Below the pieces are notes generated by a model. That model was not told where the DNA came from. It made no database searches and was given only the letters and a program-made list of their open reading frames with translations. A program made the translations under genes and the position numbers. 60,232 nucleotides of DNA from a virus (taxonomy: Duplodnaviria > Caudoviricetes): the IMG/VR virus record IMGVR_UViG_3300044825_000282, positions 1 through 60,232 of that record. One strand, given 5' to 3'. Position 1 is the stretch's first letter, and the number at the start of each line of letters is the position of its first letter. Below are positions 2,769 to 55,309 of this stretch, piece by piece.

Positions 2769-2779
2769 GATTAGCCTCC

Positions 2780-2990
2780 TGTTACACCTTGACTCAAGTT
2801 CTGCCCTTGGGAAGGGCAGACCTAGCCTTATCCTAGGACTGCCTTCACAACTGCCCCTCGGAGCCGGTTGACCCGCCAGCCTTTTCGATTCAGGGTGCTG
2901 GCTTCGCCGCCCTGTGTCCCGTTTCAAATCTATCCCGTGGTTGGACTATGCACACTTGCGCCCACCGTTGACCGTCACGCAAGCAGGTGA
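2780..2990 (-). ncRNA. candidate structured 5' leader RNA (H-type pseudoknot plus hairpins) of the primase operon
   Basis: CAGGG/CCCUG crossed with GCCAGC/GCUGGC (2875-2914); GGCAG-CCUAG/CUAGG-CUGCC hairpin; alternative CUGCCCUU/AAGGGCAG hairpin. Confidence 0.55.
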
Positions 2991-2992
2991 CC

Positions 2993-3022
2993 AGTTTACA
3001 GTGGGTCGATGAAATTTTTCAA
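2993..3022 (-). promoter_or_regulatory. possible sigma70 promoter for the primase operon
   Basis: TTGAAA-N18-TAAACT on minus strand. Confidence 0.4.
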
Positions 3023-3055
3023 GGCATAGATGCACGATTAGGGCAAGTCATAAGC

Positions 3056-3090
3056 AAAAAAAGGAGCGACTGCGTTTAAACAATCGCTCC
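3056..3090 (-). terminator. Rho-independent terminator with GTTTAAAC in its loop region
   Basis: GGAGCGA..TCGCTCC stem plus T7 on minus strand. Confidence 0.85.
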
Positions 3091-3135
3091 GTTCAAGCCT
3101 AATGGCAACTGCGCTTGGATGGAGAAGTTCCAAGC
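3056..3135 (-). ncRNA. candidate sRNA-B (~80 nt)
   Basis: promoter TTGACA(3169-3164)-N16-GAGAAT; 5' hairpin GCUUGGA/UCCAAGC begins at the predicted +1; ends in terminator GGAGCGA/UCGCUCC plus U7; no ORF. Confidence 0.65.
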
Positions 3136-3141
3136 AGGTTC

Positions 3142-3219
3142 ATTCTCGCGAAGCGGTGTTGCGTGTCAATCGAGAACAAACTGCGAACGCTTGACAAGGC
3201 TCATGCGACTTGTGACAAT
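3142..3219. promoter_or_regulatory. back-to-back divergent sigma70 promoters with GAAC-N7-GAAC between the two -35 boxes
   Basis: minus: TTGACA-N16-GAGAAT; plus: TTGACA(3191)-N17-GACAAT(3214) with extended TG; GAACaaactgcGAAC at 3174-3188. Confidence 0.7.
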
Positions 3220-3225
3220 GCGTTC

Positions 3226-3304
3226 ATTCCTTCGTGATTAGCCTCCGAGCGGATACCACTACCGGTGGGGTAAAGGGACTCTTCGTGAGTCCCTTTATTT
3301 TTTT
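3226..3304 (+). ncRNA. candidate sRNA-A (~79 nt) with anti-RBS seed GAUUAGCCUCCGA
   Basis: near-consensus promoter upstream, strong terminator downstream, no credible ORF; seed is the reverse complement of several phage RBSs. Confidence 0.7.
3272..3304 (+). terminator. Rho-independent terminator
   Basis: AAAGGGACTC-ttcgt-GAGTCCCTTT followed by A and T7 (long U tract only on plus strand). Confidence 0.85.
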
Positions 3305-3681
3305 CCGAGCGGTTCAACACGAATCTCGCACCTCGGGTTCTGCGGGTCGAGCGCCCAGTAGATGTGCTTCTCTTTCACCTGCCTGTCGTTCTTGTAGGCC
3401 ACGTCCTGCAACAGATCAAGGATCAGGCTCTCGTCCAGATCGGGGCGGCGGCTTGCGTACCAAATCTTGATGTGAACGGCGACATCCCCTTCGATCATTC
3501 GGCCTGCTCGTGCTTGCAGTTTAAACGCAGAGGCATACGACAACGCCTTCGCTGACTTGATCAACCGAGGCGAACCTCCGATGGTCACCATCTTCCGACT
3601 GTTGGCTTTTGACGCTGGCTCCCCAAGAATTTTGAATGCAAGTGCTTGTGGCGCGTTCGTGTTAGTGCTATCATCATCCAT
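3295..3681 (-). CDS. rusA: RusA-like Holliday junction resolvase
   Basis: GEPASKANS N-terminal motif, RRPDLD...ILDLLQ...KNDRQV acidic triad, PRCEI C-terminus. Confidence 0.85.
   Translation of the reverse strand: MDDDSTNTNAPQALAFKILGEPASKANSRKMVTIGGSPRLIKSAKALSYASAFKLQARAGRMIEGDVAVHIKIWYASRRPDLDESLILDLLQDVAYKNDRQVKEKHIYWALDPQNPRCEIRVEPLGKK
3646..3674 (+). promoter_or_regulatory. sigma70-like promoter of the recombination operon with a GTTCGTG half-site
   Basis: TTGTGG-N17-TATCAT with extended TG; spacer contains CGTTCGTG. Confidence 0.5.
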
Positions 3682-3710: not shown

Positions 3711-4589
3711 TTGAAAGTCACAAACAAACACAATGTTCCCGAAACATTGGTCGCTCTGGCATCCAGAGATTACTACACGAAAGGCAAGGCTGACTACAGC
3801 GTCACCGAGATCATCTCCCCGCCCCGCATCCAGCGCCTTCGTCGCGCACACCACGAACAGATGGAGCAGGACGTGAGCGATATGCTCTGGCAACTGCTTG
3901 GCTCTGCCCTGCACGTTGTCGCCGAGCGTGGCGCAGCGGACGGTCACATCACCGAGGAGCGCCTGTTCACCGAGATCGACGGCGTGAAACTCTCGGGAGC
4001 CATCGACATCCAGAAGGTGGAGTCGGATGGCACGATCATCACCGACTACAAGTTCACCAGCGCGTGGGCGTTGCGTCAGGACAAGTTCGAATGGGAAGCC
4101 CAGCAGAACATCTACGCATGGCTGGTCGAGCGTGAGAAAAAGCAGAAGGTCAAGGGCGTTCAAATCTGCGCCCTGATCCGCGACTGGAGCCGCCGTGAAG
4201 CGTCCGTCAAGCCCGACTACCCCCAAGCCCCCATCCAAGTTCTTGAACTGCCCCTGTGGCCCCTTGAGCGCACCGAGGCATATGTTCGTGAGCGCATCGA
4301 GGCACACCGCATGAGCAAGGTGCAAGCCGACTGGGGTGATGAACTGCCGCCCTGCTCAGACGATGAACGCTGGGTGCGCGAGACCAAGTTCGCCGTCAAG
4401 CGCGAGGGCAGGAAGACTGCCATCCGTGTGTTCGACACGCAGCAAGAGGCTGACGAACTGGCGGTCAAAGAGAGCGGCTACGTCGAAGTGCGCAAGGGAG
4501 AAGCCATCCGCTGCACTGGCAACTTCTGCGGCGTGGCTGAGTGGTGCAGTCAGTATCAGAAATCCCTGAAGGAGGCTACCGATGAGTGA
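3711..4589 (+). CDS. PD-(D/E)XK (Cas4/RecB-like) exonuclease
   Basis: GSALH, SGAID...ITDYKFT, QQNIYAWL, C-terminal Cys cluster (RC..FC....WC); upstream of the ERF gene. Confidence 0.85.
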   Translation: MKVTNKHNVPETLVALASRDYYTKGKADYSVTEIISPPRIQRLRRAHHEQMEQDVSDMLWQLLGSALHVVAERGAADGHITEERLFTEIDGVKLSGAIDIQKVESDGTIITDYKFTSAWALRQDKFEWEAQQNIYAWLVEREKKQKVKGVQICALIRDWSRREASVKPDYPQAPIQVLELPLWPLERTEAYVRERIEAHRMSKVQADWGDELPPCSDDERWVRETKFAVKREGRKTAIRVFDTQQEADELAVKESGYVEVRKGEAIRCTGNFCGVAEWCSQYQKSLKEATDE

Positions 4590-4827
4590 CCGGATGAGTG
4601 AAGAAAAGTTCTGGATCGTGATCTGGGGTCTGGCATCAATCTGCTTTTGCGTTTTGATTCTGTCGATCACGGCAACTATGTGGAGCAAGCGGTCCCATCT
4701 CAATGAGATGGTCGCAAAGGGTGCGGACCCAATCCGCGCTGCGTGTGCGTTGGATATGTATGACAACCAAACCGTGTGCGTCATACACAACGTGAGGTTT
4801 GACCAAGCATGGAAGGAAGGACAATGA
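4582..4827 (+). CDS. hypothetical membrane protein
   Basis: GGAGG RBS, one hydrophobic segment, overlaps with both neighbours. Confidence 0.7.
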   Translation: MSDRMSEEKFWIVIWGLASICFCVLILSITATMWSKRSHLNEMVAKGADPIRAACALDMYDNQTVCVIHNVRFDQAWKEGQ

Positions 4828-5462
4828 ACGTCTATCAGAAACTCAACGAAGCCCGGGACCAGTTCCATCAGGCTTCACTCAAAAAGAGCGGACACAACAA
4901 GTTCGCTGGCTACTCGTACTTTGAACTCGGTGACTTCGTTGTCCCTGCCCTTGAGATTTTCAAGCAGGTTGGGCTGACCTCCGTCATCTCGTTTAAACCG
5001 GACGAGGCAACCATGCAGATCATCAACACCGACAAGCCGGACGAGATGATCGTCATCTCTACCCCGATGAGCGAGGCATCCCTCAAGGGCTGTCACCCGG
5101 TCCAGAACCTAGGCGCTGTGCAAACCTACCTTCGGCGTTACCTGTGGGTGGCTGCGATGGAGATCGTCGAGCATGACGCGCTCGATTCCACCACCGGCAA
5201 CAAAGCGCAAGACCCTGCGCCAGCAGAACCCGCACCCAAGAAGATCGTTGCCAAACGCTACGAGGAGCAAGACCCGAAGAGCGAACTCTTCGTGCAGTCG
5301 ATGATCAACTGGGGCAACTCATGCACCTCGCTCACCGAACTCACCGACCTGTGGAAGACCAATCAACCGCAGATCGATGAACTGAAGAAGAACAGCAAAG
5401 AACTGTTCAAGCGTGTCCAAGAGCATTTCGCTCAACTCAAAGCCAACTTTAAAGAGGACTAA
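4824..5462 (+). CDS. erf: ERF-family single-strand annealing protein
   Basis: KKSGHNKFAGYSYFEL and GAVQTYLRRYLW...EHDALD ERF motifs. Confidence 0.9.
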   Translation: MNVYQKLNEARDQFHQASLKKSGHNKFAGYSYFELGDFVVPALEIFKQVGLTSVISFKPDEATMQIINTDKPDEMIVISTPMSEASLKGCHPVQNLGAVQTYLRRYLWVAAMEIVEHDALDSTTGNKAQDPAPAEPAPKKIVAKRYEEQDPKSELFVQSMINWGNSCTSLTELTDLWKTNQPQIDELKKNSKELFKRVQEHFAQLKANFKED

Positions 5463-5464
5463 TC

Positions 5465-5752
5465 ATGGCTGATCGTGAATACCTAAACAGCGGCACTCTG
5501 TTCCAGAACCGTGTCAAGAAAAACCCGAAGGCTCCCGACTACCAAGGCGACATGACGCTCGACCTTGCTGCTCTGGGCATTGGAACCGGCAAAGCCAAAC
5601 TGCGCATTGCTGGCTGGAAGAAGACCTCCAGCAAGGGCACAACGTTCCTTTCTCTGAACATCAGTGAATTCAAAGAACGCGAAGAGGGCGGCTACCCCCG
5701 CGCAGCAGCACCGCAGCCGCAGTACAGCAACGACGAAGACGAACCCTTTTAA
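5465..5752 (+). CDS. ssb: single-stranded DNA-binding protein (short OB-fold type)
   Basis: KNPKAPDYQG, IAGWKK, acidic C-tail DEDEPF; follows erf. Confidence 0.8.
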   Translation: MADREYLNSGTLFQNRVKKNPKAPDYQGDMTLDLAALGIGTGKAKLRIAGWKKTSSKGTTFLSLNISEFKEREEGGYPRAAAPQPQYSNDEDEPF

Positions 5753-5766
5753 ACACGGAGGCTAAC

Positions 5767-6111
5767 ATGGCAAAGAAAGTTTCACGGATTGGTTTCCTGC
5801 GCGAGAACCCGGATGCAACCTACGAGGAATTTTTTAAGGCAACCGGTGGTTCAAAGCAGAACTACCACAGCAACCGCTGGCTGATCGGCAAGGAAGTGAA
5901 AGGCGCTTCCAAGCCGCGCAAGACCATGACCGTCAAGGTCAAGGCTCACCGCCGTCATCCTGCTGGCACTGCACCAGCGGACCTGATTATTGCCAACGGC
6001 AAGGTGGTGAAACTTCAAAGCGAGATCGACAACCTGAAGCATCAGATCGTGGGCTTCCGTGCGGTCATCTCTTACCTTGAAGACTTGGCTGGGTTGAGGA
6101 ACTCGCAATGA
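5767..6111 (+). CDS. hypothetical protein with C-terminal coiled coil
   Basis: GGAGGCTAAC RBS; ATGA-coupled to next gene. Confidence 0.75.
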   Translation: MAKKVSRIGFLRENPDATYEEFFKATGGSKQNYHSNRWLIGKEVKGASKPRKTMTVKVKAHRRHPAGTAPADLIIANGKVVKLQSEIDNLKHQIVGFRAVISYLEDLAGLRNSQ

Positions 6112-6521
6112 GTGCCCTGCAATTTGAAGCGTTGAAGGTTGCGTTAAAGCAGGACGCAACCGGATACGTTCTCACGGTCAAGATTCATCCCGACGAGATA
6201 CCCGAGGAACTGCTGCGCGACTTTGTCGGTGCGAGATACGGCGTTGCGATGGTCCGTATAAACGACGACGAGTCGCCCATGATGGTCAAGAACCGAGTGC
6301 AGAAGGCCGGGATGCTATGCCGAAACAACTGGTTCCATCGTTTCCTTACCGAGCGTTACGAGATCGGTAGGGCAAACGAGGCGACTGCGACGCGCTTCAT
6401 TCATGACATCTGCGGCATCAAGTCGCGGACTGAACTCAATGGCAACGCTGCTGCGCAAGAAGCCTTCGACAAACTGGTGGAGGAATACGAAGAATGGAGC
6501 GAGAAAAATGACCCGTTTTAA
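6108..6521 (+). CDS. hypothetical phage protein
   Basis: 137-aa ORF in a translationally coupled operon. Confidence 0.75.
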   Translation: MSALQFEALKVALKQDATGYVLTVKIHPDEIPEELLRDFVGARYGVAMVRINDDESPMMVKNRVQKAGMLCRNNWFHRFLTERYEIGRANEATATRFIHDICGIKSRTELNGNAAAQEAFDKLVEEYEEWSEKNDPF

Positions 6522-6834
6522 AACAGTGGCTCCCCTCATGATCTATGTGCCACCGGCAGAACTTGCGGAACTCAAGAAGTTTGCGAAGTCCGCGAAGAAG
6601 CCCGTGTCCCACATAGCGCGTGAGGGAATCCGAATGCGACTTGCAGGAGAGAGTAACCCCTACAACAGCGGATTCGATGATGGCCTAAGTGCAGCAATGG
6701 ACGTTGCACAGAAAACCAAGGGTGCGCAGATGCGCTTCCCATCCGGCAAATCGTTTGGACAACTGGTGTGCGATGAGATTGAAAAGTTTAAACGCACACG
6801 GGAGATGCCGGAGGGTGGTGATGACGGCGAATGA
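6508..6834 (+). CDS. putative ribbon-helix-helix DNA-binding protein
   Basis: PLMIYVPPAELAELKKFAKSAKKPVSHIAREGI fits the RHH strand-helix-helix pattern. Confidence 0.6.
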   Translation: MTRFKTVAPLMIYVPPAELAELKKFAKSAKKPVSHIAREGIRMRLAGESNPYNSGFDDGLSAAMDVAQKTKGAQMRFPSGKSFGQLVCDEIEKFKRTREMPEGGDDGE

Positions 6835-7090
6835 CAAGCAGGTGGGCGGCAGTCATTACAAGGGAGGAGCAATCCAGCCTTGGGATTACATCGCCGCCAA
6901 CAACATTGGCTACTTCGAAGGCAACATCATCAAGTACGTTTCCCGATGGAAGCAGAAAGGTGGTTTGAACGACCTGAAGAAAGCGCAGCACTACCTTGAG
7001 AAACTGATTGAACTAACCGCACTGGAGGCTAACCGTGATGAGCGCGAACGAATGGACCGCACGAATGGAAGAAGAGAGAGTGAAGACTGA
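6821..7090 (+). CDS. DUF3310 (SaV-like / T7 gp1.7-like nucleotide kinase family) protein
   Basis: QVGGSHYK...GYFEGNIIKYVSRWKQKGGLNDLKKAQHYLE signature. Confidence 0.85.
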   Translation: MTANDKQVGGSHYKGGAIQPWDYIAANNIGYFEGNIIKYVSRWKQKGGLNDLKKAQHYLEKLIELTALEANRDERERMDRTNGRRESED

Positions 7091-7250
7091 GGTAAGCAGT
7101 CTTCCCATCGAGGCAAAGATTGCCATCGCTCTCAGGACAGCAGAGTGCATCGAGCAGAGTAAGGACGCTGACGTGGTCAAGGGTCTGAAGGTTTTGTTTC
7201 AGACCGTGATCCACGACTTGGTGACCATCAAGACCGAGCCGAGGCACTGA
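7035..7250 (+). CDS. hypothetical protein
   Basis: GGAGGCTAA RBS before GTG/ATG. Confidence 0.65.
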   Translation: MMSANEWTARMEEERVKTEVSSLPIEAKIAIALRTAECIEQSKDADVVKGLKVLFQTVIHDLVTIKTEPRH

Positions 7251-7251
7251 C

Positions 7252-7590
7252 ATGGACCAAGAAGACGTTATCCGCATGGCGCGTTCCGATGATTGGGCAG
7301 CCGATGTGTCTTTGAAGTGGGATGCTTTTTTTGTGCGTTTTGCCAACCTTGTCGCCGCTGCTGAACGCGAGAAGGTCGCTGCATGGATGATTCAGCGCGG
7401 CTACGCAACCGGGCACGGTGACACCACAGAAGACCTGCTCAATGAACTTAATTGGCAGATTGCGGAGCGCATCGCCGCCGAGCGTGAGGCGTGTGCGAGG
7501 GTGTGTGATGTGGTCATACCCGGCGACGAGTATTCGACTGCACTCATAAACAGTTACGCTGACGACATCCGCGCAAGGGGAGAGAAATGA
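7252..7590 (+). CDS. hypothetical phage protein (AAEREACA family)
   Basis: FANLVAAAERE / AEREACARVC motifs; resembles 51143..51427. Confidence 0.75.
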   Translation: MDQEDVIRMARSDDWAADVSLKWDAFFVRFANLVAAAEREKVAAWMIQRGYATGHGDTTEDLLNELNWQIAERIAAEREACARVCDVVIPGDEYSTALINSYADDIRARGEK

Positions 7591-7931
7591 ACAGAACATC
7601 CATTGAGGCGATCAACCTTGTACTGGCAACCTTGAATTTCGACGATGCCTATCCGGCCCAGCGTGAACTGCTGCGCGAAGCCTTGGAAGCGGCAAAGCGG
7701 AGTCAAGAACAAATCTCCGGGTTGAGCGCATTGTGTGAGACGTTGAACAAACTGCAAGAGACTGCCGTGCAGATGATCAAGCCTGCGGTGGAGGCCGCAG
7801 TGCTGAAAGAGCGTGAGGCCAACGCCCGTGTGCTGGATGAAATGGCTGACCAAATGGTTGCCGATATGGAGCCGAGTGCTGCCGTGGCGTGGGTGCGCAG
7901 TAAGGCAGAGGAAATCAGGAGACGGGCATGA
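7587..7931 (+). CDS. hypothetical protein
   Basis: ATGA overlaps at both ends. Confidence 0.7.
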   Translation: MNRTSIEAINLVLATLNFDDAYPAQRELLREALEAAKRSQEQISGLSALCETLNKLQETAVQMIKPAVEAAVLKEREANARVLDEMADQMVADMEPSAAVAWVRSKAEEIRRRA

Positions 7932-8734
7932 TCAAGGACATCCTTGAGGCATACGGCAAGCACCTTGAGCAGACCATCACCCACCAGCGGGGGATGATCG
8001 CCATCAAGCGGCTTGCCCCACTGCATGGCTGCACGGTCAGGAACGTCTCAAAGCAGATCGAGCGGTACATCAATGACCGCAAGGCATCGCCCGGGACCAT
8101 CAACCGGGAACTGGCGGTGCTGCAAGCGGCCCTGCGCTGGTCGTTTAAACGTGGAGAGATCGACTTCCTGCCCGCCATCCCGAGGTTGCCTTCACCTCCC
8201 CCTCGATCCAAGTTCCTGACGGACTCGCAGGTCGCCGCCCTGCTGGATGCCGCCAAACCATATCCACACGTTCACACGTTCATTCGGATTGCGCTCATGA
8301 CCGGGCAAAGGAAGGAAGCCATCCTGTCCCTGCGCTGGGATCAGGTGGATTTCCAGACCGGTCTGGTGGACTTCAATGACCCCTCTGGGACGCTTTCTCA
8401 CCGCAGGAAGGGTCGAGGTATTGTCCCGATGTCAGACGCGCTCAGAACCCTGCTGGAGGGCTTGCCAAAGGACCATATGCACGTCATCCACCACTACGGC
8501 AGACGGGTGCGGGACTTGCGCGGGGTCTGGTCCCGACTCATGAAGGAGACTGGGCTGGACATCACGCCCCACATCCTGCGCCATACAGTTGCCACCCAAC
8601 TGGCTCAGAAGAACGTGCCCATGCCCCAGATTTCCAGACTGCTGGGACACCGGCAGACCGCCATCACCGAACGGGTCTACGCCAAGTTCTCCCCGGAGTT
8701 CTGCCGCCAAGCCGTCACCCACCTCAACGTTTAA
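7928..8734 (+). CDS. tyrosine recombinase/integrase (short, no arm-binding domain)
   Basis: TINRELAVL core-binding motif; catalytic R (TGQRKE), HILRH, LGH, Y (RVYAK). Confidence 0.92.
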   Translation: MIKDILEAYGKHLEQTITHQRGMIAIKRLAPLHGCTVRNVSKQIERYINDRKASPGTINRELAVLQAALRWSFKRGEIDFLPAIPRLPSPPPRSKFLTDSQVAALLDAAKPYPHVHTFIRIALMTGQRKEAILSLRWDQVDFQTGLVDFNDPSGTLSHRRKGRGIVPMSDALRTLLEGLPKDHMHVIHHYGRRVRDLRGVWSRLMKETGLDITPHILRHTVATQLAQKNVPMPQISRLLGHRQTAITERVYAKFSPEFCRQAVTHLNV

Positions 8735-9713: not shown

Positions 9714-9810
9714 TGTTCATGGAAGACGGATTGGCGCACAGTGCATTTACTGCCATGCACGTCAATCCGCTTCAATGATCAACGGTAAGCCTAGTCAATC
9801 GACTTCTTGA
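9610..9810 (+). CDS. possible small zinc-finger protein
   Basis: CFKC...CIYC; overlaps previous gene by ~100 nt. Confidence 0.35.
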   Translation: MEQNGNSTNKQSSASKYCFKCGRAFPEAMMRPKFDVHGRRIGAQCIYCHARQSASMINGKPSQSTS

Positions 9811-12800
9811 GGAACTGAATCCGAGAGGTCAATCCAACTTCCGCTTTGCGGATGTTGTCCAGCACATTACGCTTCTGGTCAGGGTCCATGTTAGACATCT
9901 GAACCGTGCGGCGCATCTCCCGCAGCATCGTCATGTCCTTGTCCAACGACTGGATGTAAGGCTTGACCGCTTGCAGTTTCGCTCCCTTGTCCACCATGTA
10001 CTCACGCAGGTCTTCCATGTTGCCCGTGCGCTCAAGGAAGTTGATGGTACGGGTGGACTCATCCACAGCCTTCTTCAGTTCGTAGTAGGACGTGACCGTG
10101 CCAGTGGACTCAGCGGACGCGAAGAACCGCTTGACCACAGGCAGTTGCTCTGCCTTCATCGTGGCCTTGGTCGGGTCTCCCTCGCCGCGCATGATCGCAT
10201 CCAGAGCCATCACCGCATAGGTTCCCAGCGTACCGGTGTACCCACGGATCAGGTTGTCGATCTTGACCGGCGATGAGTTGGTCGCCTCGCCGATCTGCTG
10301 CGCCAGCAGAGACGTTCCTGCCGATGCTTGGTACTTCGGAGCCACGTCCTCCAGACCCTTGCCAACGATGGGCTGGCCCGTAAAGAACGAGTAGTTCGCC
10401 ACGTTCTCCAGCACAGGCAGGAAGGCTTGAGGGATCGGGTTGATCGCCAGCGTCGAAGTGATGTTGCGGATCACAGAATCCTTCAGGTCTTTGGACGTGT
10501 CCTGACCCATGAAGTATTCCAAGATGCGCTCGGGGAACACTTTAAACACCGTGCCGATTTCGAACGGGATCGGAATGCGGACGTTGCCGATGATCCAGTA
10601 GTTGTCGCGCACCTCTTGCTCGGCGGTCTTGTACTCCTCAGTGTCGGAGGCAAGCATCCAGTACATCCACGACAGGCCCATCAGGGTGAGGGAGCGAGTC
10701 ATGAATGCCTTCTGCATACGCTCCTTGTTCTGAGTCGCAGCCTTGCCGAAGCCAGCGCGGTACAGAACGTCCAGACCTTGAATGCGGGCGTTCATGAACG
10801 GAACCACCGCAGTTAGGACTCGGATCAAAGCGGAGTTGCCCTTGCGGCTGAAGTTCAAAACCTCCATCGCTTGGTACAGAGCCTCGGCCTCGTTACCAGT
10901 CTCGGCGAGGGTGCGTTTATACACCTCGGCACGGGTCGCAACGTCGGATGCGCCAGAGGCTTTCTCCAGCATATCCCACATCTTGGAGATCGGCAGAAGC
11001 GCAATCTCTTTGCCGGTGCGAGTGCCGGTGCGCTTGCGCAGTTCGGCTTCCAGCGCACGAGCGGAAGACTTCGCGTCATCGCCAAAGTCGTACCCTGCAA
11101 ACAGACCTGCGTTGGCAAGAGACTGAGCCTCCTTGGACTTGCCTGCGAGCGCAGCGCCGTACTGTTTAAACGTATCGACGATGGGGGTGATGTTGGTCCC
11201 GGTCGTGACCCATGCCTGCAACGAGTCACGCATCAAGTTCGCCAGCATGAAGCCGGGGTCTTTGGTGACCAAGTTGCGCAGCAGGTTGGACGGAGCAGCC
11301 AGCACTTCAAGGAACGGCAACTGAGGCAGGTTCAGTCCCTTTAAGGCTTCGATCAACAGCGGGTCATCGACTTGGTAGTGCTTGGTCTGACCGTTCTCCT
11401 TGACCGTCACGATGTCTGCCCCACGGGCGAGCGCAGCAGGCACGAACTGGCCTTGGTTTAAACGAAGCACGTCACGCACCACACGTTGGGCGGCAACGTT
11501 CTTCATGCCAGCCTCGATGGCGGCACGGCTGTTGCGGACGATGGTCTCCATGAAGTCAGCCAGCGGAGCCTCGCCACCCTTGAGTTTGCGGGGCTTGGCG
11601 ACACCAGCAATCGAGGAGAAGATGTTGGGGCCAGCAATCTCTTCGCCTTCCAACTGACGGTAGAAGGGGATGTAGTCCCAGTTCTGCGTCCAGATTTCTG
11701 CTTCCTTCTCGGAGATCACACCCGTGTCACGCATGAACTCAACGAGACCCTTGTTGTACTTCTGGTACTCGTCGAAGACTTCCTTGAACTCAGGGTACTG
11801 CTGACCGATCAATTCACCGCGACGGATGTCTTGTGGTGTAAACAGTTGCTCCCTGCCCTCTGCGGTCAGGCGCTTGCCACGGCGAGTCGCTGCGTAGAAC
11901 TGGAAGGCTTGGAAGACGAACGGATCGTTGTACTTCATCAGCGGCTCAAGGATCGGGATCAGACCCTTGACCGTGCCATCTTTGTCCGAGACGGTGGTGA
12001 AGCCGTTCTTGAAGACAGGCACACCGTTCTGATAGGACGATGCAGCGATGCCCGCAGCGCGGTCAGAGAACAGCGTTGCAGCAATCGCGGACGTGTCAGC
12101 CAGCAATTCTGCTGAACCGAACTGCGCCGCCACCTCTTTCGAGAGACGCTCAATCGATTCGTACTTGTTGATGAAGGCTTGACGGAACTTGGTGAAGCCA
12201 GTCGGAGAGAGCGCCTCGCCCATGCGCTGGGCAAAGCCTTTCTCTTCTCGCTTGGTGGTGGTGCGCTCGATGGCATCGACAGTGTCCTGACCTAGAGAGT
12301 CACGCAGCGAATACTTGAACGCATCCTTGCGCAGGGAGAGAGTGCCCTCCTTGCGAGACGTTTGAACGGGTTGCGTTTCAACGTCTTTGATTTGCTCCGG
12401 GGTATAAACGCGCTTCGTTTGCACAGGCACTTCTGGGCGAGCAACGCGACCTTCGCGCTCAACAACCTCTGCGCCACGAACCGGTTGCAGGAACTCAGCA
12501 ACGCGAGGCGCACGACCATTCCACACCGGAGGACCGTAACGCTTCTGCGGGTTCTCCTGTGTAAACATGGTGATGATCGACATCTCGCCTTTCTCGGGCG
12601 AGAGGACCAGCGAGTTTTTACCGTCATACAGAACGAACTTGCCACCGTCACGGTAGATCGAGTTGTAGTTCTGAGCGGTGCGCTGCGCAGTGCGGACGAT
12701 CTTCTCAAGCAGTTCCTCTGCCCCGCCCGGGATACGGTTGGGATCATTCAGAACACGGTTGAGGATGTGGTTCGCACCATAACCCTTGCCGGTGATGTCA

Positions 12801-15800
12801 TCGTGCGTACCGATCAGCATACGGATGGGCTTGCCACCCAGACGCTCCGGGGTCAGGCCGAGGTTGCCATCGGGATTGCCGCCTTCGTTGGGGATGAGGG
12901 CAGAGTCAGGCTTCACGCCCTTCAGCGCCAGCGCGTAACGGATGTCGTTGTTGTCACGAGCGAACGTGCCAATGTTGCCGATGGCAGACTTGATCTGGTT
13001 GGGATCGTAGACGGCAAGGTTCTTCAGACCACCTTCCATCACATAGAAGCCATCGTGCCCAAGAGCCTTGATGGCATCTTGAACCCTCTCTGCCTCGATG
13101 GTTTTCCAACTGCCAGACTCAAGAAACTCTGCGTTCCTGTCGCCATACTTTTGCTCTGTCGGCTTAAGGAACTTGTTGTATTTTGGCTCGTTGAGTTTTT
13201 GAATCAGTGCCTGAACTTGTTCAGCATCCTCAAAGTCAAACGGGTTCTCAGCGCGGACAAACACCGGCATGATGTTCGCACGAGACTCCGCTTGATCGCG
13301 CAAGAGAGCCTGCAATTCATCCTGCGCAGAGGTTTGTTTTTGTCTTGCAAGTTTGGCGGCTTGGCTTTCGAGAGCCAACTTCTTGGAGTCCGGCATCTCT
13401 TTCCAGAGTTGCTGCGCTATGTAGTCCTCAGACATATCAGCGAAGCCCTCGGCAAAGCGAGGACGGTCCGTCACAAAGATGGCATTGGCTTGCTTCGGAC
13501 GGAACTCAGTGATGTCACGGGCAGTGCCGTGGTACATGACCTTGGGTTCACCAGCGCCACGAGAGCGGAAGTCGCTCATCAGTTTGTCGCGACCCTCTTG
13601 GGTCAGACCTCGCCAGTAAGAATCCTGCTCGTCCGCAGGGATGCCCATGAAGTCCATGACATCCTCACCGGACAGCGCCCCAGTATCGCGCTCCGCAACG
13701 ATCTTGGATTTGCCGAACCACTTCTTGAACTCAGGCGTGTCGGTCTGGCGCAGAGCGTAGCGACGATCACCGATCTGCACGGTCTCTTCTTCGGGCTTGC
13801 GGCTGATCTCATCACGAGTGCCACGATAGTCAACTGGCGTGTCGTTGTTGAGGATCACCATCATGCCCATGCTTGGGATGGCGTAGCCGTCATACCCAGC
13901 ATCGATCACGCCGGACTCAAAGTTGTTGGAGTCGCCGAATGCCTCGCGGCTGATGCGACCCATCTCTGGTCCGGGGCCAAGGATGTTGTTGAAACGCTGG
14001 ATGTAGACGTGACCACCCAAGCCCGACTCGGGCAGAGGCATCTTGCCGTCTTCTTTGGGAATGTAGAAGTAGACCCGATTCTTGATGCGCGGGTCGAATG
14101 CGTTTTCCAGACGGCGAGCCTCTGCGCCACGGATGCCAGTGCCGTACTTGCCGCCCGAAAGTTGATCTACCTTTTCTTTGCCGTAGTGAACAGCATCAAA
14201 GGTCATTGCTCCCGGCTGTCGATCTCCGAGACTGATTCCATTGCCTTCTGCGCCGGATCGAAGGCTAAACTTTCGAGGTTCAGACCATCCGTACTCTTTT
14301 CCGAACTGGTCGGCGATTCGTTCGTAATCCGCGCTCCAACCTTCAATGTACCGTCGTAGATTGGTGAGTTCGGCGGGGCTAAATCTTTCAAGGTAACCTT
14401 GCCCATTTGTGTTCTCCGTCCAGTCGTTAGAAATCCATCCTGATTTTGCTCGGAATGGTTCAACGTCAAAGTCAACATCCTTGTCGAAAGATTCCAGCGC
14501 ACCTTGCAGTTTATCAAGATACTGCTTGTCTGACATCATGTATGGCTTGCCGCTGTCAACATCGCGGAAGTTGATAAAGTCAAACGAGTTGCCCACGCGA
14601 GTAAAGCCGATGCCGGGAATCTTTTCGTTGAGATGTTTAAACAACCTCTCCTCAAAACCCGGGTTGGCTTCTGCGTTGGTTGCAGTGACTCGATAGCCCT
14701 TGCTTGCATCCTTGCCGCCAGCAGTCGGGTCAGCGCGATACCACGGCACAGCGTCTTGCTTGGTGACGTAGCCGATGATGGCTGCGTACTTGTTGGCAAC
14801 GTCCGTGAGGTAGTCGCCATCGTCCTTTTGCAGAACGAGTTTGGTGATCACGTTGGGCGCGATCAGGTTCTCGTATGCACCGATGGAGAACTGCGAGGAG
14901 TACAACTGTTGGTTGCCCAGCAGTTCAAAAATCTTGTCAGTACCCGTCTCAGGGTCGATGAAGATTTCGCGGACAGCCCGGTTAAACGCTTCCTGCTCTG
15001 CTCGCGAAGCCTTGTGGATGCCCGGGATGAGCGGCAACTTGGTGGACGGACGGCTCTCCCATGTGATGTTGGCAGTCGCACGGGTGATGTAGTCGCTGAA
15101 GTCAATGATGCTCGGCTCAAACGTGGCTTGCTTCTCAGGCGGGAGGCTGTTGTAGTCCGTGGTGTTCTTGACGTAGGTCCACAGAATCGCTTGCACCTGA
15201 CGGGGCTTGAGTGCTTCGCCAGTACGCGCCATGTTGGCTTCGCCGATGCGGCGAATCAGGTCTTTGGCGTAGGTGTACTGGGTGTTCGAAACACTCGATG
15301 CACCACCTGCTGCCTGATCCTCGGCATGAGGATAGCCAAACAGACGCATCATCCAGCGGTCAATCGTAGAAGCGTCTTGGAACGTATCCACACCGTAGGT
15401 TGCATCATGCAAGTTACGGTAGAAGTTCATCAACTTATCGTCCACACCGGGCACAGATGTGTCCATCGTGGGCGCTGCCAGCAATGCAGGGATACGCGCA
15501 GCCGTGGTGTTGGGGAAGCGACCAGCGAACGCCGTAGGCTCACCCGCTGCCATCTGGGCAATCGAGGAGATGGTGGCGGTGGTGTTGCCGCCAACGCCGT
15601 TGGCCTGAGAGTACAGCGCCATCAGACGCACGACACGCTCAGTCAGGACCGGGTCACCACGGGTGATCTCCATGATCGCCCTGCCGCTGTCCTCATACCA
15701 GTTCTTCGACTCATCGTAGAGCGAGTACGGGTGCGAGAGCAGGTTGGTCATCTGCTCGACCAGACGGGTGCGGTCTTCCTCGGTACTCATGCCCGGAGGA

Positions 15801-18800
15801 GCGCCGACGATCTTGCCGTTGCTCATGACTCGGGGCAGTTGGTACTTGGGTTCCTCGGGTACAGCCTCGCCGCCCGGACGGACGGTAGCCCGACCCGCAG
15901 CCGGAGCCTTCAGGCCACCGGCATCCAAGCGAGTGAAGATGCCCTCTGCGGACTGGAAGCCCATGCCACGCAGCCCATTCCCGAAGGCGGTCATGAACTG
16001 GCGAATCTTGTTGAACAGTGCCCCGATCATGCCGGGAGGAGCCTTGGTCTGGTCGAAGTCGGAGAAGGCATCTGCAATCGCCTCTTCGATCATGTCGGCC
16101 TGAGACATCCCCATGCCACGGTAGCGGTTGGCGATGTCGTACTTTGCCATCCACTCGGACTTGGCTTTGTTCTCCAGTACACGCCACTGCTCGGGTGTAA
16201 ACGCGCCGAGTTCCTTCAGGGCATGGATACCCTCGTGACGCAGGGTGCGGATCGGATTGTCCGCATCCATCGCAATTGCGATCAGTTTCTGAAGGTAGTA
16301 GCCATCTGCGGTCCGACCGTCCTTGGTCTTGATCGTCTTCAGGATGTTTAAACGCAGATCGCCGAGGCCCAACCGGTCCATCATCGGACGCAGTTTCTTC
16401 GCCAGTTCGTCGGCTGCTTTCTGGAACTCAGGGGTGAAGACACCGGCCTCGGCAAGACGTGCCTCTGCTGCGGCCTTATCGCCCGTGAATTCCACGCCAA
16501 AGCCCGCCGGTTGCTCACCACGGCGGCGGCGCAACTCAGCCTCTGCCATCTTGCCCAGACGCTTGGGCATCAACCCTTTCTGGGAGGGAGCCAGTTTGAC
16601 GATGCGCTCAAGGGTCTCGTCAGGCAGACGCAAGAGAGCGGCCTCTTCTGCCGCCTGTTGGGACGGGAAGGTGGCGACAGGCTGGCCCTGTTCAAACAGG
16701 GTGAAGCCATCGCGGGTCACAGGCTTCTCACCCTTCGGAGCAATCTCCAGCGGGGCGGTGTAGTTCTGGACCTTGGCCTTCAGTGCGTTGATCTCGTTCT
16801 GAAGGCGCTTGTTATGGGCTGCGACACCGGCAGCAATCTTCTTGTACTCAAGAGTGTCAGCCTTGCCGTCAGCCTCCATGCTCTCCAACTTGCGCTGGCT
16901 CTTTGCCATTTCGGCTTCTTTCTTGGCGATGTCGCCAAGGTAGCCGTTGGCCTTTTGGGCGCGGAGTTGTTGCAGGCGTTCAGCCTTGGCATCCGCTTCC
17001 TCTTGGGAAGGAGCAGTTTGCAGGACAGCGTCGGGGCTGCGGATTTCAAAGCCCGCAGGCGCAACACCTTGTTTAAACGTTCCCTGACGGATGTCTGGCC
17101 CGCCGGGGAGTTGGGCTGCGGTTCCGGGGATCGCTACGTCCTGATGGGTGCGCTCACGAACCTCCAAACCAAGACGTGCAGCGGCGTTTTCAGCCGCTTC
17201 GCGGGTGGTATAGCGACGAACCGGGGGCGAAGTCATGTCGCCCGGGATGCCCAATTCAAAGACCGTGCGATTGGTGGTGGTCAGGTCACCATTACGGATG
17301 GCAGTTTGCAGCAATGACTCAGCGTCACGGTCGCTTTCCAGACCAGAGAACTCCTTGATCTCCTGAACTGCCTTGTCCCGAGACATCATGTTGTTCTTCG
17401 GGAAAAGAGCGGTCAGGTTCTTCAGAGAACGGTTGTACTGGTCATCGCTGAAGCGAGTGGCGTTCGTGCCGGGAGGAAGAATCTGGGTCTTGTCGCTCGG
17501 CGAGAGTCCGTCCAGTGCTTTAAACGCAGAGAACAGTTGAGGCTGCGACATGGTCGTCACATCCTCAGAGCCGGTGGCTCGGCGCAGGAAGTCCATGAAG
17601 CCGACCGTCGAGGTATCGACGTTCTTCTCGGCTGCAAGGTTCATCACATCTTCAGCGGACAATTTGGTCGCGCCGTCATAGCCGGTCTTGTAGGTCAGCA
17701 GACGGTCGATCTCTGCCTGTGGAGCGCCAGCGTCAGCCAAGTCCTCAATCGAAAACTGCTGGATGCCACGCTTGCCCTCGGTCTTGCGGATGTTGTTGAC
17801 TGCCCGGAGGTATGCCGGGGTAAGTTCTTCAGCGTTGAAGAAGCCCACCGGGTTCATCAAAGGATCGCGAGCCTCCTCCTTCTCCACCTTCGGAGCCGGG
17901 GCTGGCAGCGCCAGCATATTGGAGTCGGGCACACCCAAATTGCGGCGGGTGGTCTCGATTTGCTGATCCTTCTCACGTTGCAACTGATCGAGTTGCTCGT
18001 TGAGTTGAGTCTGACGATCTTGATTGAGTTTGGCCTGATACGCACGACCGATGTCTTTGCGCAGCAGGAAGTCCAGACCAGTCTGGGCAATGAAGCCCAC
18101 ACCGCCGCCCAACGCAGCATCACCAAGGATGGACTGCCCCACCTCAAGGTTGGGGTTGTAGATGCCCTTGGCAGAGAGGTCTTGCAGCAGACCGGAGGCG
18201 GCTTCCTGTGCGCCCTCGATACCGCCTTGCGCCAGACCGCGCTTGATGTAGTTGGCGATGTCGAGTTTGACCGCGCCAGACAAAGTCTTATCCAGACCAC
18301 GGAAGAGTTTCTCGACCGGCAGCAGTTCGGTCAAACCGATGGGCACACCGACAGACAGGGCAGAGAGTTCTTCGCCCGGAGTAACGGTCTTGCCTTCGCC
18401 TCGCGCAATCTCGACCCGCTGACGGGCTTCTTCCGCGCCCAGACCAGCAGTCTGAGCCACCGCCACCGGAGCGGCTGCGCGAGGAGCCATGCCAGCAAAG
18501 CGACCGGCAGTTCCCACGCCGCGAAGCAGAACCTGCGGACCAAGGATGGAAGCGAACGAACCCAAGCCACCCGCCAGTTGGGTGACTACACCTTCGTCGC
18601 TTGGAGCCAGATACCGCTCTGCGCCCGTGATTGCCTGACCAAAGCCCGTCTGCTCAAACGGCTTGAGTTCCGGCATAAAGTATCGAGCGCCTGCGTAAGG
18701 GAGCGCACCAAGACCACCAAAAGACTGAACGATGCCGGACGCTGCGCCCTTAACAAATTCTTTGGGCACAGAAAGCAGTTGACTCCCAATGCCGGGAGTC

Positions 18801-18928
18801 TCTGCCTTGATCTGACCAGCACCAATCTGCTGCTGAAGGATTTGATATGCCTGTTGAGGTGTCGATCCTTCAGGTCCGTTGATGATGTATTTTTTGCCGT
18901 CCGGTGACGTGAACTCAAATGCTGGCAT
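9791..18928 (-). CDS. giant ejected/internal virion polyvalent protein (3045 aa)
   Basis: last gene of the ejection cluster; HEGIH zincin motif, two ADP-ribosyltransferase-like segments (HYG...GYDGY; MYHGT...GHDGF...QIKSA), GYGANHI BECR-nuclease-like motif, LPD38-like C-terminus. Confidence 0.85.
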
Positions 18929-28214: not shown

Positions 28215-28628
28215 TTACCCCCTTGTACTGGTGAATTGCTCATCGCCTTTCTTGACGATGACCTTGTCTCCATCTACAGCCACGCTGATCGGATCGCGAT
28301 CTGCCATACGGTCCAGACGCTCGATCAGTTGTTTCATCACCTCAAACTCAGGCTTCTCCTGCTTGGGAGTTGCGCCAGCGATACCGTTGATCATTTGGAT
28401 TAGGGCGGTCAGCGCGGCAGAGACAAGACCAATCACCGCAGCAATCTTGCCTTCATCAAGCATGATGCTTGCGATCACACCGATCAGAACAATCAGGGTG
28501 ATGGCAAGCAGACCCCATTTGCCGATGGCTTTGCCAGCGACTTCTTTGGCAGTCGATGCAGCCTCAAGGCGCATCATCTCTGCCCGGACATCGAGTTTTG
28601 CTTTGGTTAGGTCTTTGTCCCCAAACAT
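28215..28628 (-). CDS. membrane protein of the lysis module
   Basis: two hydrophobic segments; GGAGG RBS. Confidence 0.65.
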   Translation of the reverse strand: MFGDKDLTKAKLDVRAEMMRLEAASTAKEVAGKAIGKWGLLAITLIVLIGVIASIMLDEGKIAAVIGLVSAALTALIQMINGIAGATPKQEKPEFEVMKQLIERLDRMADRDPISVAVDGDKVIVKKGDEQFTSTRG

Positions 28629-28630
28629 GA

Positions 28631-28798
28631 TTAACCTCCTTGCGGATCGTCAGCAGGCTCCGGCGTGTTGCCTTCTTCAAGCCACTTCTGAAACTCTGGA
28701 TAGTCAGCGGTGCAAGTCAAGCGGCACAGGCCATCGTCATCAATACGGGCGTAGACAACTTGTCCATCCAAGTTTGTTGAGTGAATTTTGTAGATCAT
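28631..28798 (-). CDS. small tail-fibre partner protein (55 aa, MIYKIHST...; not in ORF track)
   Basis: read manually; ATGA overlap; DYPEFQKWLEEGNTPEPAD motif. Confidence 0.75.
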   Translation of the reverse strand: MIYKIHSTNLDGQVVYARIDDDGLCRLTCTADYPEFQKWLEEGNTPEPADDPQGG

Positions 28799-47312: not shown

Positions 47313-48815
47313 TCAGTAATATGCCGCCTTGCGGGGCATAAACGAACCCTCAACTTCGTCTGAGTCAAGTTGGATAAAGCCACCCTGCCTGAAGCGAAGC
47401 AATGCTTGGGTCGTTGAGTCCACCAAGTCATCGTGGTCGCCGTTAGGAAATGAGGCGAGTTCCTCCACCAATTCATCAGCCCAGCGCGTTTCGGGTCTCC
47501 AAACCATGCCCGACGCAAAAAGATCAGACACGGCGTTTACACGGGCTATCTTATCTGACCCTTTGCTCGGTGTGTACTCCGCGATGGGGATGCCCATCCT
47601 TCTCATTTCGTAGATGAGTGGCGCTCCAGCCGCCTTTTTCTCCACAATGAGCGTGTCTGGGTTCCACTCTTTCCAGAATTCGAAGGCGGTTCTTTTGAGT
47701 TCGGGGAACTCCATGCGCTCTTTAAACGCATCCAGAACAATGATGTTGGCGACTTCGTTTCCTTCGACATCGCGATAGAACACTCCCCATGTGGTACAGG
47801 CCGAGTAGTCAGCCCTGTTGCTCTTTTCGAAAGCCGTATCCCACGACTGGATGATGTAATCGACCTGCGGAGGACGTTCTCCCTCCCAAATCTTCCACAT
47901 CTCCCGCTTGATGATGGCCCCTTCTTCGGAGGTGGGGTTCTGCTGGTACTGTGCTTCCCACTTTCCCACGGGGAGTTCGGCCTTGATGGCTTCCAATTCC
48001 TCTTGCCGCCAGAATTCTTGCCATAGGGGTTTACCCGAAGGCAGCAAAGCGGGCAGTTCGATGACCTCCCAGTCCTCCAAATCCTTCTTGGCGGCAGCAT
48101 TGAGAATCTGACCGGTCAAATCGCGCTTGGACCAGCGGGTCATGACGATCACAATCGCCCCTCCCGGCTGTAAACGCTGACGTGGACCGGAGGAATACCA
48201 CTCATAGACCCGGTCATACACTGCCGGATTGCCTTGCATGGCCTCTTGTTCGCTGTGCGGGTCGTCAATGATCAGCACATCCGCGCCTTTACCGGTCACT
48301 GCACCCCCAACACCGATGGCGAAGTAGTCGCCGCCCTTGGAAGTGTTCCACCGACCGGCGGCTTTCGAGTCTGCCGACATCTTGGTGGGGAAAATCTCTT
48401 GGTAGTCGGGCGATCCGACCAGATTTCGCACCTTTCGACCGAAACCGACCGCCAATTCAGCGGTGTGGGCGGTCTGAATGATCTTCTTTTCGGGGAACAT
48501 ACCCAGAAACCACGCCGGAAACAGGTAGGAGGCGAACTCCGACTTGGTGTGCCGGGGTGGCATATTGATGATCAGGCGTTTTAACTCACCCCGAGCCACC
48601 CGCTCAAAGGCATCTGCCATGATTTGGTGGTGTTTTCCGGGGATGAAGGCCGACCACATCTGCCGCACGAAGGGCATGAAGTTCTGTCGGCAGCGTTCGC
48701 GCTTGTCTGCTTGCAGCAGGGTGTTGATTTTCTCGATCTCGGGAGAGCCTTCTGGCAGCGTATCGAGCAGTGCCAGATATTGCTTGACCTCTTCCCGGGT
48801 GAGTAGATCGCTCAT
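47313..48815 (-). CDS. terL: terminase large subunit
   Basis: PPRHTKSE Walker A, LIIDDPH Walker B, VMTRW, SWDTA and HDDLVDS nuclease motifs. Confidence 0.95.
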   Translation of the reverse strand: MSDLLTREEVKQYLALLDTLPEGSPEIEKINTLLQADKRERCRQNFMPFVRQMWSAFIPGKHHQIMADAFERVARGELKRLIINMPPRHTKSEFASYLFPAWFLGMFPEKKIIQTAHTAELAVGFGRKVRNLVGSPDYQEIFPTKMSADSKAAGRWNTSKGGDYFAIGVGGAVTGKGADVLIIDDPHSEQEAMQGNPAVYDRVYEWYSSGPRQRLQPGGAIVIVMTRWSKRDLTGQILNAAAKKDLEDWEVIELPALLPSGKPLWQEFWRQEELEAIKAELPVGKWEAQYQQNPTSEEGAIIKREMWKIWEGERPPQVDYIIQSWDTAFEKSNRADYSACTTWGVFYRDVEGNEVANIIVLDAFKERMEFPELKRTAFEFWKEWNPDTLIVEKKAAGAPLIYEMRRMGIPIAEYTPSKGSDKIARVNAVSDLFASGMVWRPETRWADELVEELASFPNGDHDDLVDSTTQALLRFRQGGFIQLDSDEVEGSFMPRKAAYY

Positions 48816-54122: not shown

Positions 54123-54286
54123 GCAAGCACAGTGCAACGCACCGCGCCTGACCGGCGCACAGATGGCAAGGCTCTCACCCCATGCATCGCCCTCGTGGAT
54201 AAGGGCGGCAAGGGATTTCCCTTCAAGCACATTCGCTGAGTGTGCTTGTGGATGCAATCCCGCATCACTCACCGGAGGCTATCACC

Positions 54287-54484
54287 ATGAACACATTCGA
54301 CGCTGTAGGCATTGCAGAGGGCTGGATCGAGGCCGACTCGCAGGAGCAACTCATCGAGGCTTGGCAACTGCTCGTTGACACCGGCCTGTGCTGGCAACTG
54401 CAAGGCTGGTTCGGACGCACTGCCCAGCACCTCATTGCAGAGGGTGTCATCTCCCCTGCCAACCGTTCAACTCAGGAGGCTTGA
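54287..54484 (+). CDS. conserved small phage protein (MNTFDAVG...)
   Basis: GGAGGCT RBS; [20 protein letters not shown] motif. Confidence 0.8.
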
Positions 54485-55288: not shown

Positions 55289-55309
55289 CACTTCATCGGA
55301 GGCTAAACC

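Follow-up and report, generated by a model that had tools for sequence, protein, structure and literature searches.

The DNA analysed here (the window) is the whole of the IMG/VR virus record IMGVR_UViG_3300044825_000282 (60,232 bp, estimated to be 97% complete). Positions 3226-3304 of its plus strand probably encode a trans-acting antisense small RNA, which would repress the translation of replication genes and other early genes of this phage. When the gene was compared across relatives, the sequences showed that the structure of the RNA is under selection and that its loop and its target sites evolve together. We infer that the RNA is transcribed, and analogy with known small RNAs that occlude ribosome-binding sites (RBSs) suggests that its effect would be repression rather than activation.

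The small RNA gene and its relatives

The gene is located in a 524-bp stretch without credible open reading frames (ORFs; 2771-3294), which separates the primase operon from the exonuclease operon (Table 1). The first-pass annotation of this DNA had described a near-consensus promoter and a strong terminator bracketing some 79 nt without a credible ORF, and this description was confirmed by the 10/12 promoter match, the predicted fold and the U-tract. The element has the defining trait of such a gene, namely its own promoter and a Rho-independent terminator around a short non-coding transcript. When the 81 nt from position 3226 were folded, three hairpins were obtained (-31.3 kcal/mol, z-score -3.76), and 0/200 shuffled sequences folded as well. 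The terminator overlaps the stop codon of a convergent RusA-like gene (3295-3297), and the overlap of the two genes is limited to positions 3295-3304. The hairpin was absent from the list returned by a scan for consensus terminators, and we think that a G-U extension of its stem into the T-run is the reason for this miss. The sole plus-strand frame through the region (3234-3470, GTG start, 78 aa) crosses the terminator and runs antisense to RusA, and relatives carry 1- and 2-base indels inside it. A cmscan of positions 2780-3320 against Rfam 15 (E up to 10) yielded no plus-strand match at 3226-3304, C4 (RF01695) included, and the only significant match in this interval was RF02932 on the opposite strand (2871-2986). 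One short metatranscriptome contig (X10) covers the small RNA and differs from it at two positions (3270 G>A, 3293 C>T), but it was not counted as evidence because DNA carry-over is possible.

A search with the primase yielded 80 related loci from viral contigs. A covariance model was built from the close group (R1), rebuilt from 19 matches (R2) and run over both strands of 85 sources (743 kb) with a cut-off of E <= 0.01. Here, we obtained 56 matches, which were all full-length, occurred once per locus and lay on the strand divergent from the primase operon. The positive sources were the window, 53 of the 80 primase loci and two further contigs (L083, L097), so that the arrangement of promoter, seed and terminator singled out by the first-pass annotation is conserved in 56/85 sources. 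In the window itself R2 gave a single match (3226-3303, 92.4 bits). An earlier crude pattern (anti-Shine-Dalgarno word, hairpin, T-run) had found 35 distinct variants of the element. The members of the family are 72 to 94 nt long. Among the closest relatives, both promoter hexamers (-35 and -10) and the transcribed part have been retained, whereas the spacer and the flanks vary. A promoter matching the consensus in at least 9/12 positions was present in register in 41/45 distinct upstream regions (random 61-nt windows: 1.3%), its -10 element ending about 6 nt before model position 1, and at least five T were found at the 3' end of 40/44 members. In 54/54 loci a RusA-like gene converges on the small RNA gene and abuts its 3' end, so the terminator probably serves both genes. 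The alternative that the element is a leader of the exonuclease operon was dropped, since tblastn placed the convergent RusA gene between small RNA and exonuclease in these 54/54 loci.

Among the 27 primase loci without an R2 match, 6 have too little upstream sequence and 21 have at least 1400 nt of it; one of the latter (L030) carries a recognisable but poorly scoring copy. On the primase tree the RNA-less loci fall into three groups (a 14-row clade, a 6-row clade and L018). When R2 was run on 151 genomes (the family of genome G002) for prophage copies, three weak matches were obtained and all of them were plain terminators without the loop. A degenerate DNA pattern, the spacing of which was mis-specified for the main group, returned mostly unrelated coding matches and three other viral contigs (L093, L094, L095), in which the word TCGGAGGCTAATC is a real gene start (followed by C/A-ATG).

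Structure statistics were calculated on a model-based alignment of 44 distinct rows. It can be seen that 87.8% of the cells are paired (64.7% after shuffling), that 206 cells carry changes on both sides (control 66.5) and that the covariation score of 0.574 exceeds those of shuffled (0.18) and slid partners (at most 0.126). Compensatory changes were present in 17/21 stem pairs. The overall sequence identity of the family is 47% and its invariant part comprises only T..(A)GCCTCC. In the model-based alignment A16, G22, C23, C24, C26 and C27 are invariant, column 25 holds U in 37 members and C in the other 7, and the loop consensus reads A-U-U-(A)-A/G-G-C-C-U/C-C-C. Directly 5' of the GCC core, 42/44 members carry a YUNR motif; in antisense RNAs such motifs can form a U-turn, which accelerates pairing. 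Folds of single sequences, for which the model played no part, gave the same three hairpins in most members, and in these folds the mean unpaired probability was 0.64 for the seed and 0.41 for the rest of the RNA. In an alignment of 36 sequences by MAFFT with RNAalifold, the stems were misaligned by indels, so that no more than 5 terminator pairs were recovered, and it was replaced by the covariance-model alignment.

Predicted pairing of the seed with early ribosome-binding sites

It had been proposed at first pass that the 5' part of this RNA is antisense to an extended ribosome-binding motif of the phage's own genes. The comparison of relatives supports such pairing, since seed and sites co-vary. 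The seed is complementary to an initiation region located elsewhere, the primase start 1 kb away, and changes together with it. On average, a seed matched its own primase site over 10.9 contiguous nt and foreign seeds matched it over 8.31 (30 distinct pairs; 0/20000 permutations), and in 19 of these 30 pairs no foreign seed fitted the primase site better. Seeds reading UUAGCC face a primase site GGCUA(A/U) (concordance 20/20, independent contrasts 4/4), UGAGCC seeds face GGCUCA (5/5 and 2/2) and GCCCCC seeds face GGGGC (7/7 and 1/1). The loop/site pairs that change together are UUAG/CUAA, UUAAG/CUUAA, UUGAG/CUCAA, GGCC/GGCC and GCCCCC with GGGGC, and on a tree of 55 we counted 12 changes of seed class. 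In locus L007, for instance, the loop A is replaced by G (GGCCUCC), and the starts of primase, exonuclease and two further genes read GGAGGCC instead of GGAGGCU.

The clade with the GCCCCC seed is informative beyond the primase. Here GGGGCU stands at 20/101 starts and GGAGGCU at 0/101, while the corresponding figures for GCCUCC loci are 9/767 and 114/767. When followed ortholog by ortholog, the primase, exonuclease and Erf-like starts of this clade turned G-rich and neighbouring AAGGAG-type starts remained unchanged, which argues against both a drift of all ribosome sites and a change of the host ribosome. Over all loci, matches of at least 9 nt to the own seed were found at 107 starts, compared with 34.7 expected from the seeds of other clades. 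Among loci with at least 1400 nt of upstream sequence, the primase start carries G[GA][AG]GGC[TC] in 43/51 RNA-bearing but in only 2/21 RNA-less loci. The remaining 8 RNA-bearing primase starts have GAGGGGCT or AAGAGGCT, also written GAGGGGCU or AAGAGGCU. As to the RNA-less relatives, nine of them (L027, L051, L053, L056, L063, L068, L070, L071, L074) have another conserved primase leader (..TTTAAACG..GGCAGCATGAAATGATTG..) and no GGAGGC, and another RNA-less clade (L066, L067, L077, L081) has coupled primase starts of the AAGAAGTAA(G)CATG type.

In the window, all complementary sites listed by the first-pass annotation at phage gene starts were found again. For the primary predicted target, the primase-helicase start, the calculated duplex energy is -24.3 kcal/mol with the small RNA and -13.6 kcal/mol with the 16S rRNA tail. 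The word GGAGGCTAATC occurs 6 times with at most one mismatch, although only 0.60 occurrences are expected and 0/100 shuffles reach 6. At least 9 contiguous complementary bases were found at 8/181 candidate starts, whereas seeds with shuffled flanks and an intact CCUCC gave 0.89 +/- 1.34 (0/200 reach 8). Similarly, duplexes of -22 kcal/mol or below were predicted at 10 starts, compared with 1.73 for shuffled flanks (0/200). At looser cut-offs (-12 to -16 kcal/mol) the real seed was not separated from flank-shuffled seeds; at -14 kcal/mol it reached 74 starts and the shuffled seeds 63 (70/300 shuffles).

Two further observations concern these sites. In a relative of 60.7 kb, which was assembled in runs X1 and X4, positions 2502-2782 are missing and 12 other letters stand in their place, and the target at the 85-aa gene, the second-best seed match, is therefore dispensable. 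Moreover, a longer word (AACTCAGGAGGCTT) is common to three gene starts of the plus strand (54460-54480, 54695-54715, 59840-59860), in each case ahead of the start codon; it could represent a promoter/leader module present in several copies or a second class of site.

Early and late genes of the window differ in their starts. GGAGGC is present at 15/27 early but at only 1/24 late starts (Fisher 6.5e-5), and the predicted duplex with the small RNA averages -17.0 kcal/mol for early and -11.0 kcal/mol for late starts (Mann-Whitney 1.9e-4). The duplex with the 16S tail is alike in both classes (early -9.2, late -8.7). In three genomes of the likely host family the 16S 3' end reads GGATCACCTCCTTT. 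Thus, the ribosome would prefer GGAGGUGAUC, and the C that follows GGAGG in the phage is not explained by the ribosome, as the first-pass annotation had argued from the usual 16S tail. This C is a mismatch to the ribosome and has its counterpart in the extra G of the loop of the small RNA. As an observation only, the loop GAUUAGCCUCC resembles the 16S tail GAUCACCUCC with one insertion.

Table 1. Coordinates of the small RNA gene, its predicted target sites and the main gene blocks of the window
Feature	Position	Strand	Details
Sigma-70-type promoter of small RNA	3191-3219	plus	TTGACA 3191-3196, N17 spacer, TG, GACAAT 3214-3219; 10/12 match
Small RNA, about 79 nt	3226-3304	plus	5' end inferred from -10 position, 3' end from U-tract
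Hairpin 1, presents seed	3228-3253	plus	Minimum free energy (MFE) fold; all 6 modelled stem pairs changed on both sides (44 distinct members)
Seed / recognition loop CGUGAUUAGCCUCCGAG	3233-3249	plus	Core A..GCCUCC, invariant in family apart from U/C at column 25
Hairpin 2 (CCACU/GGUGG)	3256-3268	plus	Fold; 4/5 pairs compensatory, e.g. CCAC/GUGG to CCGC/GCGG in L007
Terminator hairpin and U-tract	3269-3304	plus	Hairpin 3269-3299, then U run; 7/10 stem pairs compensatory, 95.4% of cells paired
Convergent RusA-like resolvase gene	3295-3681	minus	Pfam RusA 3.7e-9
Primase-helicase RBS and TTG start, primary predicted target	2248-2266	minus	TCGGAGGCTAATC; 13 contiguous complementary nt at 2254-2266
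85-aa gene (start 2768; first of primase operon), RBS and AUG, predicted target	2766-2779	minus	GGAGGCTAATCATG; 12 Watson-Crick pairs, 14 with one G-U; -27.6 kcal/mol
AAA (MoxR/CbbQ-like) ATPase gene RBS, predicted target	55296-55312	plus	TCGGAGGCTAA; 11 nt; -25.0 kcal/mol
114-aa gene RBS, predicted target	5756-5769	plus	CGGAGGCTAA; 10 nt
71-aa gene RBS, predicted target	7024-7037	plus	GGAGGCTAA; 9 nt
65-aa DUF7417 gene RBS, predicted target	54273-54289	plus	9 nt
141-aa gene RBS and AUG, predicted target	59318-59332	plus	TCGGAGGC-AATCATG; one bulge; -25.4 kcal/mol
137-aa gene beside lysis genes, RBS and AUG, predicted target	28626-28639	minus	GGAGGTTAATCATG; one G-U pair; -22.8 kcal/mol
Leftward early operon	556-2250 and upstream	minus	Last gene primase-helicase
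Rightward early operon	3711-8734	plus	Exonuclease 3711-4589, Erf 4809-5462, SSB-like 5465-5752, tyrosine integrase 7928-8734
Structural and lysis block	about 9.8-53.6 kb	minus	3045-aa polyvalent protein, ejection protein, tail fibres, endolysin, major head protein, portal, terminase
Second rightward arm	about 53.6 kb to record end	plus	AAA ATPase

Proposed mode of action and alternative explanations

We propose that host RNA polymerase would transcribe the small RNA from its own near-consensus promoter and would stop at the intrinsic terminator. The 5' hairpin would expose the loop (G)AUUAGCCUCC, which resembles the 3' tail of 16S rRNA but, because of its extra G and its A/U-rich extension, should fit the RBS dialect of the phage (GGAGGCUAAUC) far better than the ribosome does. 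This loop would pair with the Shine-Dalgarno (SD) sequence, the spacer and the start codon of the primase-helicase mRNA and of other early mRNAs. Such pairing would keep the 30S subunit off and lower the translation of these messengers, and late genes with their AAGGAG-type sites would be spared. The first-pass annotation had suggested a master translational switch acting genome-wide. Its trans-acting seed pairing is supported, but 'genome-wide' was too broad: the primase-helicase start is the only target kept in all relatives, and the other early starts form a lineage-specific handful.

As to the biological role, we prefer a control of dosage or timing that acts on the replication module. Three features (a strong promoter, a location at the head of this module and the integrase) agree equally well with dosage or copy control, with immunity and with an early-to-late switch. 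Since the phage has an integrase, the small RNA could also serve as a determinant of immunity or incompatibility.

A number of points weigh against a repressing antisense RNA of this kind. The structure counts given above rest on an alignment that was fitted to the model and its structure. In the MFE fold of the window the 3' half of CCUCC lies inside the stem, in L007 the seed is mostly paired (unpaired probability 0.26), and the counts of G-U versus A-C (39 vs 22) favour the plus strand only mildly. The four sequencing runs that were compared consist of assembled contigs, which cannot show ends, strand or level of a transcript. The early and late gene sets were hand-picked, and gene starts were called by a heuristic (ORF plus SD-like word). 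As to the co-variation, the relatives share ancestry, so that the 3' side of the SD sequence offers 8 independent contrasts in all, and no single trait is significant in a sign test. Co-variation on the 5' side of the SD sequence is weak (1/4 and 1/5 contrasts). In some phages (L028, L032, L062) the primase site is matched better by 9 to 11 foreign seeds than by the phage's own, and at the 9-nt threshold several loci show no advantage of their own seed over others. Finally, a near-consensus promoter would fire early, which is awkward for a simple late shut-off.

More tentatively, the private SD dialect and a small RNA that mimics the 16S tail might together form an immunity or incompatibility determinant, which would replace a protein repressor or act beside it; we regard this as possible, although the odds are against it. 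The small RNA would then be made constitutively from a resident or replicating genome and would out-compete ribosomes at every dialect site, whether the mRNA comes from the phage itself or from a superinfecting relative. Joint diversification of loop and dialect (CUAA, CUUAA, CUCAA, CCAA, SD core GGAGG to GGGGG) would give rise to heteroimmune groups. The 12 seed-class changes and the integrase are consistent with such a role, as is the lack of a repressor-like domain among the 49 window proteins scanned, a scan that left many small ORFs outside.

The pairing evidence is silent on the sign of the effect, so the small RNA might also bind the same sites and help: it could shield them from an SD-cutting nuclease (of host defence or RegB-like), stabilise the mRNA or open an inhibitory fold. 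A strong, constitutive-looking promoter would suit a factor needed from the start of infection. However, the duplex covers the SD sequence, the spacer and in several cases the start codon, known small RNAs that occlude the RBS exclude the 30S subunit, and no nuclease partner was seen among the proteins scanned. We therefore consider a helper role unlikely.

Somewhat less likely still is a transcript that acts mainly in cis, against RusA read-through, or on host mRNAs as an anti-SD RNA, with its fit to phage sites being secondary. It is true that RusA converges and overlaps the terminator in 54/54 loci, and that read-through from RusA would be fully complementary to the small RNA, because the minus-strand hairpin has no T-run after it. 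In addition, any RNA bearing CCUCC can touch host SD sequences. But action in cis needs no seed that tracks a primase site 1 kb away, and host sites match the 5-nt core only, their 16S-complementary extension being UGAUC and not CUAAUC. A cis-encoded antisense RNA of the sar, OOP or CopA type was rejected, since the co-varying primase target is about 1 kb away and offers a complementarity of 13 nt only.

Alternatively, the shared word could act at the level of DNA or be recognised by a protein, its co-variation reflecting a changing protein specificity. The sites of one protein would also change together, and inverted GAAC..GTTC repeats near promoters suggest a DNA-binding regulator. Yet the word keeps the exact SD-to-start spacing at gene starts, even inside operons. 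At the small RNA locus it lies in the loop of a co-varying hairpin between a conserved promoter and a terminator, and there the transcribed strand is the complement of the word and not the same strand. This makes the explanation quite improbable.

We see next to no likelihood that the locus is a minus-strand gene start, either live or a relic (GGAGGCTAATC and then an ATG that was lost), although a decayed gene start was one of the findings which the first-pass annotation had named as overturning its proposal: the word does look like a ribosome site and is followed by ATG in L019, L020, L045, L054 and L076, but a start codon 4-14 nt downstream is absent from 26/45 distinct relatives, ORFs have a median length of 0, only 5/45 have at least 30 codons with lengths differing between near-identical phages (55 vs 30), and a relic would not keep an opposite-strand promoter, three co-varying hairpins and a U-tract.

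Known systems, neighbouring elements and the phage

The small RNA is a new RNA family, but the regulatory principle is already known. P4 CI is an RNA immunity factor. In Firmicutes, RNAs with C-rich loops (RsaE/RoxS, RNAIII and other UCCC Rsa RNAs) use an unpaired loop to pair with the G-rich SD sequences of many mRNAs and block initiation, so that a whole regulon is governed by one RNA. The small RNA described here resembles them in its anti-SD loop and its many targets. They are, however, chromosomal host regulators with a generic 4-nt motif, whereas this RNA is phage-borne, carries the full CCUCC plus an extension of 5-8 nt and addresses the phage's own genes through a private, co-evolving site. 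CopA/CopT of R1, the Inc RNA of ColIb-P9, RNAI and P22 sar are constitutive antisense RNAs with YUNR loops that block translation of replication initiators, and changes in their loops create new specificity groups. The seed-class changes of the small RNA recall the incompatibility groups of these plasmid RNAs. In contrast, the plasmid RNAs and sar are encoded opposite their targets and are fully complementary to them, while the small RNA is encoded in trans with 9-14 nt of complementarity. The T4 nuclease RegB and the T4 repressor RegA are phage factors that recognise their own early RBSs as a class and shut translation off, but these factors are proteins, not RNA, and unrelated in sequence. 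The small RNA belongs to none of the known groups, being trans-encoded, with its own promoter and terminator and no Rfam match.

Among phage RNAs the closest comparison is with c4 of P1/P7 (RF01695) and with P4 CI. Like these, the RNA of the window is small and structured and presents its antisense sequence in a loop. In c4 and CI, minor changes of the loops make related phages differ in specificity, and the same would hold here. Both c4 and CI arise by processing of the leader of their own target operon and act at one or two sites there, CI by transcription termination. Unlike them, the small RNA of the window has its own promoter and terminator, its main target lies 1 kb off on the other strand, and a single loop with an anti-SD core matches several unlinked gene starts. 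In PMC12197685, c4 is described as a structured phage antisense RNA the loops of which pair around the ribosome-binding site in a phage mRNA. Our literature search, which included parts of PMC12197685 and PMC10914365 but not the supplements, which may list more phage non-coding RNAs (ncRNAs), revealed no phage RNA of this kind. The idea that ncRNAs of PAK_P3 might target ribosome sites was not confirmed by the same parts of these two papers.

Several other elements were observed beside the small RNA gene. The Rfam motif Betaproteobacteria-1 (RF02932, 76.9 bits) is located between this gene and the gene that opens the primase operon; it is on the strand of that operon and just downstream of a 9/12 promoter (3022-2993, minus). 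It was found in 10/15 related loci scanned, always about 400-550 nt upstream of the primase. L066, a locus without the small RNA, has it as well. Because of its position, strand, promoter and recurrence, the motif has the appearance of a leader or ncRNA that belongs to the primase operon and is carried by the phage. A further small transcription unit (3055-3169, minus; 10/12 promoter 3169-3142, terminator 3090-3063 plus T-run) is arranged back to back with the small RNA gene. Its product of about 80 nt folds with -32.1 kcal/mol (z-score -4.9), and the unit is conserved in L002, L083, L003, L005 and L008 but not in L007. Its hairpin 1 shows compensated variation and has a CU-rich, UCUCC-like loop, which is followed by the conserved GCAGUUGCCAUYAGGCUU; possibly, this unit is a second small RNA of the anti-SD type. 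In addition, inverted GAAC..GTTC repeats are located beside or inside the small RNA promoter (window 3150-3215; L004, L008, L019, L036, L041, L075 and others). Many relatives carry the exact palindrome GAACGTTC, and in several loci a second copy is found about 600-700 nt off near the exonuclease. These repeats are a candidate operator for a DNA-binding regulator.

The tyrosine integrase gene (PHROG 1, 3e-48) closes the recombination operon. It is kept in close relatives (contigs of L047, L083 and L004), and the phage group is therefore probably temperate. Among deposited phage genomes we found no close relative (a DNA search gave 4 short matches, and the best primase match was 33% identical), and consequently there is no annotated or cultured counterpart. 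Relatives of the primase occur in metagenome bins titled beta proteobacterium and Burkholderiaceae, and this uncultured freshwater group probably consists of phages of Burkholderiaceae. The 3045-aa polyvalent protein (9791-18928, minus) contains LPD38, ART-PolyVal (ADP-ribosyltransferase) and DUF7178 domains and is probably an ejected virion protein. The ORF at 47313-48152 (minus) matches the large terminase profile in its C-terminal part only (positions 447-708 of 760). Since the N-terminal part must sit in a separate upstream frame, the terminase gene is split, interrupted or miscalled by the ORF finder.

To our knowledge, a few cases of antisense control have been described in phages, each with a single target. 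If our reading is true, this phage marks a class of its own genes by an extended ribosome-binding word, and one small RNA reads that word. The SD core moving in step with the RNA would then be natural evidence of competition between a regulatory RNA and the anti-SD tail, and the natural classes of seed and site would be ready-made orthogonal pairs. The orphan Rfam motif Betaproteobacteria-1 would be placed as leader of the operon targeted by the small RNA, and a function would be offered for a conserved non-coding gene in a large uncultured group of freshwater phages.

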